64,000 bases of DNA, taken from the NCBI GenBank assembly GCA_000002445.1, contig CH464491.1, forward strand, positions 4,544,001-4,608,000, given 5' to 3'. The position numbers were made by a program, and so were the translations under genes. Shown here in pieces: positions 37,977 to 57,995 of the stretch. The stretch's first letter is position 1. Each line of letters opens with the position of its first letter. The DNA is from Trypanosoma brucei (lineage: Eukaryota). The notes under the pieces were generated by a model. It had not been told where the DNA came from. It ran no database searches and saw only the letters and a program-made list of their open reading frames with translations.

Positions 37977-39423
37977 ATGCTAAGACAAAAAGCCCGGAAG
38001 TCCGCAGTTTTTCTGGCGGCATTTGTGGGCGCGGTATTCGCACAGGATGAAGAGTCCTCAGTCGAAGCAATAAAGAGCACGTGTGATGAAGCGGTGTGGC
38101 TTCAGACCGTCCAAGATCATTACATCAAAAATGTACAAACAGCTGCAGCTCGAAATTCTGACCTACTCACAGAAGCCAGGAACCTAACCCTAGCCGCGGC
38201 ACAGTTCTCCGACCAAACGCAACAGGCGGTACTAACCTCGTTAGCTGCCATTGCAGACCAGCGAGCAACTGCAGCGGCAGCGATCCTAAATCGAGAAACA
38301 CCAAGCTTACTAGCAGCGGTAGCCTTGCTGAACGAACGACGCGGCAACGTCCGAGCACTGTCGCTTATAATGAACACCCAGGAATCCGCAACTTTCTCAG
38401 GGTCGACGACAACGGCTGGCGACAACGTACTCTTTGCCGCGACAACAGTCAAGTGCTTTCTAATAGCAACACTGGACAAGAAACCCACAGCGGAGTGCAC
38501 AGTAACGGAACAGAGCGCGACGAAGCTAGTAGATGCAGGACACCACCTGGCCAAAATAACGAAAATGAAAGCGATACCGCTAACAAAATTTGGCATGCCT
38601 CAACTTGGTGTGGACATAGAAACGAAAGGTACGTTCACCGCAGGCAGTAACCAAGCAAACGAAAATAACAAATGCGCAGACAAACCCATAAAAAGCAGTG
38701 AAACCAACGGTGCCGGTTTAACGAAACTAGCACTAAATCAACCTACAGCGGCACCAACGGACGTGAAAATGAAAGATAACGACGGCTTCGTAAACGTATC
38801 CAAAGAAAAAGACCACTACATCACCACTGGGACCCAGGTAGCAAGCGCCACCTATAACCTAAGAGCCCTAACATCCAAACTTCTAGGAAAGATAGCGGAT
38901 GAAACAGCCGATTCCCTGAGCAACGACCACAACGTTCAGAACGTAATTTACCTCACACTCGGTAAAGGAGAAAATATCAATGACAGCACCGACCAAAAAG
39001 CAGAAAAGATAAAAAGCCTGTTTGGCGGCGCCGGGACCAAACTGTAAGACAAATTTTTTTCGACTTTCAACGCAGACAACATAAAATATACTGTTGGTAA
39101 ACAAACCGTAACCACGAGCGTAGCGAAGGCTGAAAGTGATTCAAACTACGCAATAACCCTAGCATTTTCGCATAAAAGCCAACACGGCAATAGCCAGAGC
39201 AAGGAATTCCAGAGAGCAGGTGAAAGCACCGACAAAATCAAAGAAACTGAATGCAGAAATAAAAAAGACAGAGGCAAATACAAGGAAAAGAATGGGTGTG
39301 AATTCAAAGATGAAGATTGCAAAGTTAAAGTGACCACAGCAACAGAAACAACAGAAAACACCACAGAAAGCAATTCTTATGTCATTAACAAGGCTCCTCT
39401 TTTGCTTTTATTTTTGCTTTTAT
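37977..39423 (+). pseudogene. VSG: VSG that is full length except for a single in-frame TAA (39045-39047) at the N/C-domain hinge
   Basis: ORF 37977..39047 (356 aa, signal peptide MLRQKARKSAVFLAAFVGAVFA). The same frame continues after the TAA, reading ...GAGTKL*DKFFSTFNADNIKYTV...ETECRNKKDRGKYKEKNGCEFKDEDCKVKVTTATETTENTTESNSYVINKAPLLLLFLLL*. Confidence 0.85.
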
Positions 39424-39458
39424 AAAACTTTTTATATTTCCCCTTCTGTTTTGCTATT

Positions 39459-39475
39459 CGGATATATTTTAACAC
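39459..39475 (+). promoter_or_regulatory. VSG 3'UTR 16-mer
   Basis: cGGATATATTTTAACAC, about 40 nt after the stop codon. Confidence 0.6.
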
Positions 39476-39559
39476 TTGAAAATTCCGCGAAAATAATGTG
39501 TGTTTGTGTAAAATTGTGACTTTGCAAAAAAAAATTGATCTGATAAAAATTTCTCTTTT

Positions 39560-54259: not shown

Positions 54260-54399
54260 TTTTTGATTTAAAAATTGAAAATTATTAACTTTTTGCAATT
54301 TAAAAGATATGATAAAAATAAAATTTTGGTGTAATATCAGCCCATGAGTATACAGTTGTAAGGCGATAGGGCGACAAAACTGATTGTTATGCTGACTTT

Positions 54400-54540
54400 G
54401 TTTATTTTGCCTATTTTTGAGTAATAGTTAGGGTTATAATAGTATTAGGAAGATAATAATAATAATGATATAAGTGTAAGTGAGTGTATCTATAATAATA
54501 TAGTAGGTGTGGTTGTGAAAATAAAATGGATCACCTAAGT
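54400..54540 (+). repeat. 70-bp-type repeat
   Basis: tagttagggttataatagtattaggaagataataataataatgatataagtgtaagtgagtgtatctataataatatag. Confidence 0.75.
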
Positions 54541-56384
54541 AAAAGCAATTAAAACAGTGGCAAGGTACGATGGAAATAAGTAAGTGAAAGAGGAAGAGAA
54601 ATATTATCAAGTTAAATGCATAAAGTTAGATGGAAAAGGACAAAAAAAGAAAAAGAGAGGTATTATGCCTAGTTTCTGAAGCAGCTATGACGGTGATAAT
54701 TGCTAATAAGAAGAAGATGGATAGATCAATCAGTGAGAAAGCAGAGTCTAATGTACAGTCAGATCAATCCGCTATAAAATATGAAGAAATAGTAATTGAA
54801 GATGAAACATAAGTCCCAAAAATACAAAAAAGAATGGAGGAATGCGAAAAAAATACGGCAGAGCGAGGAGCTATAAAAGGACTATAGATCTCTACATTGT
54901 ACTCACAAATCGATAGATTCTACTTCAGAGATGGTGGCCCCTGTAGTTTTTTATTTAATAGCGAATGCTAATTTATGGCTCTGACAGAGAAGATAAGGAA
55001 GGGGGTATTGAATAGGTGTAAGGAAAATATCTTAGTTTTCTCGTCAAATGTAATACTAATAGCAAACATTTGTGTTTAGTAATATAATATTACGGGGGAA
55101 AAAATTAAAACTATGACTACCAATGCATTACCATGAATAGAATAATGAAAACACTTGAACTGCTAAAAATAGCGCATGTATAAACTGTTATGGAGCCTTT
55201 ATGAAGTAGAGAAAAACAATGCCACTATTTTTCAAGTTATGTATTTGCATACTGGAAAGATATTAAGAGTTTGAAAGAAACTAGGGCACACCTCCAAAAG
55301 TTCTCTGATATTCAGGTGAAAAAGTGGATTGATAAGACTAACGTTGTCAAAAAACACTTTACGAACTCAAACTGAAGGGTCTTATGTGGTTTCTGACTAT
55401 ATTATACAACAAGATCTAAAATAGAAACAGAAACCAAACCGTGTTCGTCAAAAAATGCCGTTACTTTTATATTCCAGCAGCTGTAAAAGCAAATAAAACT
55501 GTAGAAAGCAGAATCCGTTAAAAGCCGTAGAGGACGATATTAAAGACAAAAAGTATTAAATTATTTTAACCGACAAACGACTTGTATTCCGGAGAATAGA
55601 TGACAATTTATATATGAGAGATGAGAAAAGTTTAGATTCTTTTTAATGATGGTTACATGGAGTTTGGATTACAAGTCATGACACAACTTGAAAAAAATTG
55701 ATCATACACTAAAAAGGTGTGACACGTTAAAAGGAGTCGAGCAACGTTCTCACCAACAAAAGCAAGACCATATATACCCAATAATGATAAGAAACAAAAA
55801 AATCTATGAACAGCTGCTAGCTTCGATATTAGCTCAAACCACAGGGCTTGTACTCCAAAAACAAAAGAAAATAAGAACACCAATGCAGCTGACAGGCAAG
55901 CGAGGGCGCTTTCGTCAGCGATGGGTGAAGTATGCAGCTGAATTAGTTGCCAAACCAGTACTGATACAGTGGTAACTATAAAAAAATTCCAGTTGTGATG
56001 TGAGCTGAAGCTGTGTGAAATTAAGTGGAATTGTCATAAAGGAAATAGTGAGGATAGAAAGGATTGATAAATAGAGAGTCAAATGGTTGAATATTGCAAC
56101 GTAGGTGAGTTCAGAGAGCTACTAGAAGTTTCTCGAAAAGTGGTGAATGGTGCTAACGAATATTTAACCTAAACTTACCAGAAAATAATTTAACTGCAAA
56201 CACTACTGCAGACAATACGGCTCCAACGCAACAACTCTCACCCAAAACAGACTCAAGCAGCGACAGGAAACGCAACCAAATTCATCATTAAACACACTCT
56301 TAAAATAAGAGGAAGAATGCTGTATCGATTGGAGGGATACAGCTCAGACACTAAAAACAGACACTCGTTTAACTTCTTCTCTAA

Positions 56385-57995
56385 ACCTTATCACAGCTAT
56401 ACAAACAAAGTACGACGAGCACGGCAATACAGGCACAAAGACTTCTGTTAGCTTTAGATTTGATAGCTTTTCAGATTGAAGCAGCGAACAAAGACGCAGT
56501 AGAAGCAACGAAGCTGGCACAACTTTGCAAAAAAACTCTAGGGATGAGGAAAACTGCGGCGGAAGTCAAGTCTGACCTAGCAGCAGGAGATGCAAAGCTA
56601 GCTCAAACGGAACAGCTCAGGGACCAAATGACTATATATGGCTTGCTCTGGCAATCGAAAAAATCAAAGGCAATCGCGATGATAGCTGCACAAGCCACGC
56701 AAACCATCATTCATTCGTTTTACACGACGATGCAGCGGCAGGCAAGTGCAGGTATGGTAAAGGCGGCGACGACCGGTATACTCGGCGGGCAGATTATAGA
56801 GGCAATGAATTTGCTAGAACAGCTGAGGGCAAGCACAGCGACAACCAATGGAGCGTACTTAACTCAAACAGCGAGTGCAAAGGCGGACGCTCAACTTAGC
56901 CGTGAGCTAGCAGGCTGCAGCAGCACCGACATACCGACCTCAAGCGAACTAGACTCGACAAACAGATTCGATAGCACAGGTCTACAAGGGGAACTAGCAT
57001 CCGGCAGCGCGACAGGAAACGGTGGTTGCGACTTCACCAAATGCAATTTTATAGCACACCCACCATCAGACATAAAGTTTTTCGACGACCAAGAAATGGC
57101 AAACCAACTGAGCATAGTGGCCGGGCTGCTTTCAACGAGCTCCGGCGGTGTGACGTTTAACAACCCAGGAAGTTTAAAACACGATACGGCAGACTCACCA
57201 ACGATGCATGCAGTGCTCGCAGCAATCAAAGCAGCACACAACTACGAGCAAACACCAGCGACAGCGGCAATCGACCCCTTCAACGAACTATATGCCATGC
57301 TAGGTGCCGAGGGGAGATTTTCCCACGTAAACTTCGCAATAAACGGCAGATTCAAAGCACCAGAAGCAGGAGCATAACAACAGAACCTAAAACAGCAAAT
57401 AACAGCAATAATCAGCACCGATGCGGGCAAATTAAAAACCGAGTTCGTCGAAAAATTATTAGCGGAGGACTTAGACTTTCCACCGGAACTTCAACTAGAA
57501 GTAAAAAAGATAAACCAGATACCAACTGACAGGCTCCGTGAAGTCGCAACATTTTTACTTCAGCGACGCGGTTCTCAGGTTCCAGAAGCAAAACCATGTT
57601 CAGACCACAATCCACTGCCAAACCTGTCAAATTCGGAAACAGACACAACTTGCGAAAAGAAAGGGGTAGATAACTGCAAACCCCCATGCAAATTGGTTGA
57701 AGATAAAGGTGGCAAAAAGAAGTGCACATGGGATAAGGATGAAGTAACGAAACATGCAGCAGGAAATCAAGCAGGAACAGGACGGACAAGTGCCTGGGTA
57801 TATTGCAGTAAACGTGACACACTAGAGAAATGTAAGAAGGCCAACAAAGGCCAAACCACCAAAGTTTGCGGATGTAAGGGAGAAAATAGTGACGAAACTA
57901 ACAAATCCGGCTACAAATTCCGCTCTTCCAGTTTTCTTGTTAATAAGAAGTTTGCTCTGAGTAAGGCTGCTTTGATGAGTTTCGTGGTATTCTAA
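56385..57995 (+). pseudogene. VSG: VSG pseudogene. It has no ATG or signal peptide and carries a single in-frame TAA (57375-57377) at the hinge.
   Basis: The frame is open from 56385. The track ORF 56460 starts at a TTG. The join reads ...GRFKAPEAGA*QQNLKQQITAII...CKPPCKLVEDKGGKKKCTWDKDEVTKHAAGNQ...KFRSSSFLVNKKFALSKAALMSFVVF*. Confidence 0.8.

Follow-up and report, generated by a model that had tools for sequence, protein, structure and literature searches.

We analyzed a 64,000-nucleotide stretch of Trypanosoma brucei DNA (contig CH464491.1 of assembly GCA_000002445.1, positions 4,544,001 to 4,608,000 of the forward strand; hereafter the window, in whose coordinates all positions are given) and studied three of its genes for variant surface glycoproteins (VSGs), here called V38, V49 and V56, each of which is interrupted by an in-frame TAA. 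The window is a subtelomeric VSG array of the T. brucei group and contains about 14 VSG cassettes, located on the minus strand at 10–27 kb and on the plus strand from 30 kb onward. Besides the VSGs, the array holds copies of the 70-bp repeat, the 16-mer typical of VSG 3' untranslated regions (3'UTRs) and an ingi-type retrotransposon at 3.9–8.9 kb. Only two VSGs in the window are intact (25823–27256, minus strand, and 60836–62347, plus strand). The proteins of these two match consecutive T. b. brucei TREU927 entries (EAN80649 and EAN80650) exactly, as they do proteins of T. equiperdum OVI; with N runs and repeat indels set aside, the contigs of the latter differ from the window by about nine substitutions in 40 kb.

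Three VSG genes with one internal TAA

A preliminary description of the window had reported that V38, V49 and V56 each maintain a single reading frame across the whole gene, with one internal TAA. Re-reading the sequence confirmed this for all three genes, at the coordinates reported and with the flanking peptides correctly quoted. All three lie on the plus strand.

V38 (37977–39425), an A-type VSG pseudogene of full length, comprises an ATG, a signal peptide, an N-terminal domain (N-domain), a C-terminal domain (C-domain) and a glycosylphosphatidylinositol (GPI) signal ending ...NKAPLLLLFLLL, followed by the terminal TAA. The internal TAA is codon 357 (39045–39047) and was probably CAA (Gln) in the ancestral gene. 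An intact homologue exists in the T. evansi VSG Q968L0 (P0002), which aligns with V38 over the full length at 62% identity, and the V38 N-domain matches that of VSGsur with an E-value of 3e-21 (phmmer). The stop column contains Gln in both proteins, Q968L0 reading ...GGTGTKLQDKFF... at this site. Identity between V38 and Q968L0 in 30-residue windows spanning the stop is 0.70, 0.80 and 0.83, making this the best-conserved part of the protein. As the identity to the homologue runs smoothly across the stop, the lesion is, judging by this alignment, a CAA to TAA point mutation and not a conversion junction.

The open reading frame (ORF) of V38 carries further damage. Codons for Phe or Tyr occupy four positions of conserved Cys, two in the N-domain (TTC at 38787–9 and TAT at 38853–5) and two in the C-domain (TTC at 39207–9 and TAC at 39279–81). 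The affected N-domain positions are Cys in almost all aligned A-type VSGs. The C-domain is without two Cys that P0002 has and would count as atypical under the criteria of VSGdb, in which C-domains without the conserved Cys are so classed (PMC1868767). The gene is flanked by homology to the 70-bp repeat on the 5' side (~35411–35542) and by the 3'UTR 16-mer with one mismatch (39460–39475). As a separate observation, a shifted-frame translation of V38 (38985–39075), KKPVWRRRDQTVRQIF, matches GKNPVWQCRDQTIRQIF of the Lister 427 VSG-1132 (P0003) over about 17 residues around the stop; at the protein level, two frameshifts on either side of this TAA therefore seem to carry the ORF of VSG-1132 past it.

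V49 (49657–51105), likewise an A-type VSG pseudogene of full length, starts with an ATG and a signal peptide, joins a divergent N-domain to a C-domain with four Cys, and finishes, as do the other two genes, in a typical GPI-signal tail (...KVPLLLAFLLL). Its internal TAA is codon 351 (50707–50709), placed in the same alignment column as the stop of V38. The N-domain matches that of VSG397 at 6e-5 (phmmer), while the C-domain is 63–73% identical to those of other VSGs. In comparisons with its relatives, identity is 0.2–0.3 on both sides of the stop and rises to 0.63–0.73 only from about residue 410–420, placing the step 60–70 codons downstream of the stop. We saw no obvious defect upstream of the stop, which appears to have arisen by a single-base substitution. 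Homology to the 70-bp repeat is found 5' of the gene at ~48473–48608, and a degenerate 16-mer with three mismatches is located at 51198–51213.

The third gene, V56 (56385–57995), is also an A-type VSG pseudogene; its C-domain consists of two subdomains, its GPI signal ends ...SSSFLVNKKFALSKAALMSFVVF, and its frame opens immediately after a TAA at 56382–56384. The internal TAA is codon 331 (57375–57377) and lies 20 codons before the column that V38 and V49 share, the equivalent of which in V56 is K351. The translation matches the Pfam models PF00913 (1.5e-24, residues 20–379) and PF10659 (9e-12, residues 423–533). At the expected initiator position we found ATA (56427–56429), from which the signal peptide would be MQAQRLLLALDLIAF...; the frame contains a TAA 45 bp before the ATA and has its first ATG at 56544. 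The start codon was probably lost by a change from ATG to ATA. A conserved N-domain Cys, present in P0014, P0015, P0016 and P0017, is replaced by TAC (Tyr158, 56856–56858). The stop column contains Ala in a distant relative, the Lister 427 VSG-1648 (P0015). No relatives spanning the stop were found: a word-indexed search returned none, and an exhaustive search with the N-terminal part returned four, all of them truncated ORFs. This stop, too, appears to have arisen by a single-base substitution. The cassette is completed by 70-bp-repeat homology at ~54390–54585 and by a 16-mer with two mismatches at 58035–58050. Given the missing ATG and lost Cys of V56 and the four lost Cys of V38, the earlier statement that the TAA is the only defect of each gene applies to V49 at best.

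The possibility of assembly errors was raised in the same description, and the comparison with other genomes indicates that the stops are real. T. equiperdum OVI holds the exact truncated ORFs as annotated proteins (P0001, 356 amino acids [aa]; P0004, 350 aa; P0018, 277 aa), but being nearly identical to the window this genome provides the weaker support. More weight is carried by diverged copies that stop alike: the EATRO1125 VSG 1125.1774 (P0024) is 97% identical to V49 and has the same last residue at 350 aa, and the T. brucei protein ARB50883.1 (P0014), a paralogue or orthologue of V56 at 93% identity, ends at the same position. Because the diverged copies end at the same residue, the stops are, by this comparison, old mutations that predate the splits from the 93–97% identical copies. 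That all three are TAA is unremarkable, since TAA accounts for 49% of the one-step nonsense paths in these A-rich genes (three of three, P = 0.12).

Position of the stops in the protein

We assigned the stops to columns using a MAFFT alignment. The ORFs of V38 and V49 end in one column inside the motif [FLY]G-x6-[KQE]-xx-[FW]; this column is occupied by Q, K, K, E, Q, K, D, K or N in the intact relatives. The DNA around the two stops is unrelated except for TTTGGCG and the TAA itself. A shared converted patch that brought the TAA to both genes was considered and rejected on the grounds that the flanking DNA is otherwise unrelated.

In the AlphaFold model of P0002, the chain beyond Q357 forms a helix, a beta-hairpin and two further helices, predicted with a confidence of 80–88. 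About 50 confidently folded N-domain residues thus follow Q357 in the model, and the confidence collapses only from residue ~410 onward, in the linker. The model superposes on the 380- to 389-residue crystal N-domains of VSGsur and VSG397 with a TM-score of 0.73–0.76 normalized to the target. For V56, the stop falls inside the Pfam match to the N-domain (residues 20–379). The stops had been placed at the hinge between the N- and C-domains; on the P0002 model, the crystal N-domains and the Pfam match, all three lie inside the N-domain. With none of them in the hinge, the truncations would remove roughly the last 50–70 residues of the folded N-domain. The accompanying proposal of a common structural position survives for V38 and V49, which share one column in the interior of the N-domain, and fails for V56, the stop of which lies 20 codons upstream.

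The N-domains of V38 and V49 had no match to Pfam PF00913 or PF13206 at E ≤ 0.01, yet both are A-type VSGs by sequence search against the Protein Data Bank (PDB) and by fold. Part of the A-type diversity escapes the VSG models of Pfam.

Neighboring pseudogenes and other elements of the array

The preliminary description contrasted the three genes with other pseudogenes in the window, said to be broken by scattered frameshifts. This does not hold: in two of these, m16 and m19, the first lesion is an in-frame TAA located in the same zone as those of V38, V49 and V56, and three more, m10, p46 and i52, carry in-frame stops. The A-type m16 has a 354-codon ORF starting with ATG (17163–16099, minus strand) and ending in a TAA (16099–16101) that lies in the same motif as the stops of V38 and V49, five codons upstream of their column; more stops and a frameshift follow downstream. 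The exact m16 ORF is present in T. equiperdum, and a 97% identical copy in EATRO1125 (P0026) ends at the same stop. The B-type m19 has a 348-codon ORF starting with ATG (20715–19669, minus strand), identical to the T. brucei protein ARB50739.1. Its TAA (19669–19671) falls in the last helix of the N-domain and is followed by further lesions in the C-domain. In m13, an A-type VSG extending from 14582 to ~13040 on the minus strand, a continuous frame is broken only once, by a frameshift in an A10 homopolymer (13573–13582) about 29 codons before the motif column.

The remaining cases are more varied. In the B-type i52 (52701–54164, plus strand), the N-domain is intact and the region of the C-domain and GPI signal is interrupted in frame by a TGA at 54054 and a TAA at ~54117. 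Its 451-aa ORF has an exact match, annotated as a VSG, only in T. equiperdum and not among the TREU927 proteins; the two stops led us to reject i52 as an intact VSG. The frame of p30 shifts in the linker, m10 and p46 have lesions in the core of the N-domain, and p42 is broken into many short ORFs. In m10, we also observed an in-frame TGA (10386–10388) in place of the final conserved C-domain Cys (CKWEGET*KYPSIFLNKK), besides a frameshift near codon 115.

The ingi-type element is a non-LTR (long terminal repeat) retrotransposon (3875–8912, plus strand) broken up into three ORFs, encoding an endonuclease (PF14529), a reverse transcriptase (PF00078), and RNase H with a C2H2 zinc finger. It lies among VSG fragments (326–898 and 2920–3540) where the minus-strand VSG array has its edge. 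The switch from minus- to plus-strand cassettes coincides with a 750-bp inverted repeat of 79% identity, the arms of which (21165–21910 and 28720–29467) lie on either side of the intact VSG at 25823–27256. A further observation concerns the T. equiperdum contig CZPT02001774.1 (positions 1–6881, compared with window position 20323). Collinear with the window at 8990–20323, the contig then departs from it inside the N-domain of m19, at about codon 131; directly at this breakpoint lies a different B-type VSG ORF of 452 aa. The divergence reflects either a structural or mosaic difference between the genomes or a misassembly.

Origin of the stops and lesions at the end of the N-domain

The three genes are very probably ordinary full-length VSG pseudogenes of the silent subtelomeric archive, each with a single-base nonsense change near the end of the N-domain. 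Each has VSG homology over its whole length and one internal TAA, with homology continuing past the stop, and each lies in a cassette with upstream 70-bp repeats and a 3'UTR 16-mer. In these respects they resemble the class of full-length pseudogenes described by Berriman et al. (2005) and Marcello and Barry (2007), as summarized in PMC1934917, PMC1868767 and PMC3467770: array cassettes with 70-bp repeats and the 16-mer and with complete homology to the N-domain, C-domain and GPI signal, disrupted by stops and/or frameshifts. The additional loss of Cys and the one lost start codon also fit this class, from which we saw no essential difference. Among array VSGs, some two-thirds are disrupted by stops or frameshifts (PMC3467770, PMC1868767), and Hutchinson et al. 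(2007) found 1/28 genomic VSGs but 12/24 N-domains to be intact (PMC1934917). What is particular to the present genes is that two of the stops share one column and that the first lesions of several neighbors lie close by.

The history of these genes would have begun when a one-base substitution created a stop in each N-domain, in its C-terminal, membrane-proximal part, and the loss of conserved Cys in V38 and V56 and of the start codon in V56 would represent later damage. Since silent array VSGs have no promoter, the stops would be without direct phenotype. Copying of a whole cassette into an expression site would bring the stop along, so that the genes could contribute only by segmental gene conversion, either in mosaic formation or by 3' donation with a boundary upstream of the stop, as published work suggests. 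Lesions in the array tend to spare the core of the N-domain and build up from its end onward. The most likely cause is a weak, second-order selection that keeps N-domain coding sequence usable, together with neutral decay farther downstream.

That the genes may serve as silent N-domain donors rescued by conversion of the 3' part had been proposed for them before. The idea is right in principle and is established biology, given that 3' donation and mosaic formation, known paths that bring N-domain sequence from damaged VSGs into the expression site, have been published for pseudogene donors (Hall et al. 2013, PMC3708902), with earlier work in T. equiperdum (Roth, Thon, 1989, as cited in PMC13233330). 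It fits the present genes less well. The published boundaries of 3' donation lie mostly in the region of the C-domain and GPI signal, with local homology of 13–143 bp, whereas the boundary needed here would lie inside the N-domain, 250–500 bp upstream of the shared C-domain homology. As donors, V38 and V56 would moreover carry damaged N-domain sequence. What interest remains lies in the apparent tendency of lesions to cluster where the N-domain ends.

Two other accounts of the stops have to be weighed. The TAAs could mark the junctions of segmental gene conversions that grafted foreign C-domains onto the N-domains, as the preliminary description suggested. The N- and C-domain types of VSGs do assort independently, V49 joins an N-domain without close relatives to a widely shared C-domain, and the short conserved motif at the stops could supply microhomology. 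The abrupt change of identity that a junction would leave at the stop was nevertheless absent where we could look for it. V38 is collinear with P0002 over the stop, where the identity peaks for the whole protein and P0002 has Gln; the conserved codon expected to have been replaced was thereby recovered in V38 (CAA). In V49, the step in identity lies well past the stop. A self-comparison of the window found DNA homology between VSGs only in the final 100–200 bp of coding sequence, in the 3'UTR and in the 70-bp repeats, and the blocks begin 250–500 bp 3' of the stops of V38, V49 and V56. An error at a junction should also produce indels or chimeric sequence and not a clean, frame-keeping substitution of one codon. 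We consider conversion junctions a very improbable origin of the stops.

Still harder to credit is that the stops are sequencing or assembly errors, or that the truncated ORFs are functional, either through stop readthrough or as N-domain-only proteins resembling ESAG7. The ORFs of 350–356 codons are clean, have a signal peptide at the start and are annotated as proteins in T. equiperdum. Naturally truncated VSG-like proteins do exist: ESAG7, SRA and TgsGP have N-domain-like folds and are missing all or part of the C-domain or the anchor, and ESAG7, at about 340 residues, is near the size of the V38 and V49 ORFs. Those proteins are expressed from expression sites and form conserved families of their own, whereas the ORFs studied here are located in silent arrays with cassette flanks, retain a C-domain and GPI signal in frame past the stop and are predicted to lose about 50 residues of the folded N-domain. 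V56, in addition, has no start codon, and error is countered by the recurrence of the same stops in a separate genome project and in the 93–97% identical copies.

Several observations on the placement of lesions weigh against the reading of the three genes as ordinary pseudogenes with nothing further to explain. The first lesion falls in a zone at the end of the N-domain, about 15% of the gene length, in 7 of the 12 pseudogenes of the window (binomial P = 7e-4, for a zone defined after the data had been seen). The chance of two stops in exactly the same column, as in V38 and V49, is ~1/200 for a given pair and ~0.015 over the three pairs, and the TAA of m16 is only five codons away. The lesions of the four single-lesion genes all lie at the start of the region past the N-domain core and are not spread over it (P about 0.01). 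The zone is not enriched in stop-prone codons, and we rejected their density as the cause of the clustering. Neutral decay with sparing of the N-domain does not alone fully predict clustering this tight; furthermore, the ancestral codon is established for V38 only among the three stops.

These patterns raise the possibility that, in addition to ordinary pseudogene decay, the last ~50 codons of the N-domain around [FLY]G-x6-[KQE]-xx-[FW] are a preferential site of ORF-disrupting lesions. A possible cause is mutagenic ectopic recombination that shuffles N- and C-domains and starts or ends in this region; another is that the region forms a "shadow" zone, neither selected together with the N-domain core nor refreshed by gene conversion between C-domains, which are more alike. 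Apart from the counts in the window, the suggestion draws on the offsets of lesions from the motif column (0 in V38 and V49, –5 and +9 in m16) and on similar cases elsewhere. On the T. equiperdum contigs, the gene at 4034–5513 of L003 has a stop at +3 and that at 6365–8004 of L004 a frameshift at about –10; the ORF of the Lister 427 VSG-1648 ends in the motif; VSG-1132 is in a shifted frame for ~17 codons around the position of the V38 stop; and the four relatives found for the V56 N-domain in the database are, without exception, ORFs ending near the end of the N-domain. The post hoc choice of the zone speaks against a preferential site, as does the independent set of eight further pseudogenes on T. 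equiperdum contigs, the first lesions of which fall three times in the N-domain core, twice in the zone and three times in the C-domain (P = 0.34). The contigs of that set contain N runs, and the stops themselves are base substitutions without sign of a junction. We found no publication stating such a hotspot, in a literature search that did not extend to Marcello and Barry (2007) and Cross et al. (2014). On balance, we regard a preferential site as a tentative supplement to the pseudogene explanation, possible though on the doubtful side. The stricter claim of a genuine hotspot in the last ~50 N-domain codons, in which independent genes are hit at the same or adjacent codons by a position-specific process and not by uniform neutral decay, we consider unlikely.

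As ordinary pseudogenes, V38, V49 and V56 are a routine example of a trypanosome antigen archive that is stored mostly as pseudogenes and usable only piecemeal. Were lesions to concentrate at the N-domain end throughout the genome, the finding would matter more and would help to predict which pseudogenes are realistically rescued in chronic infection.

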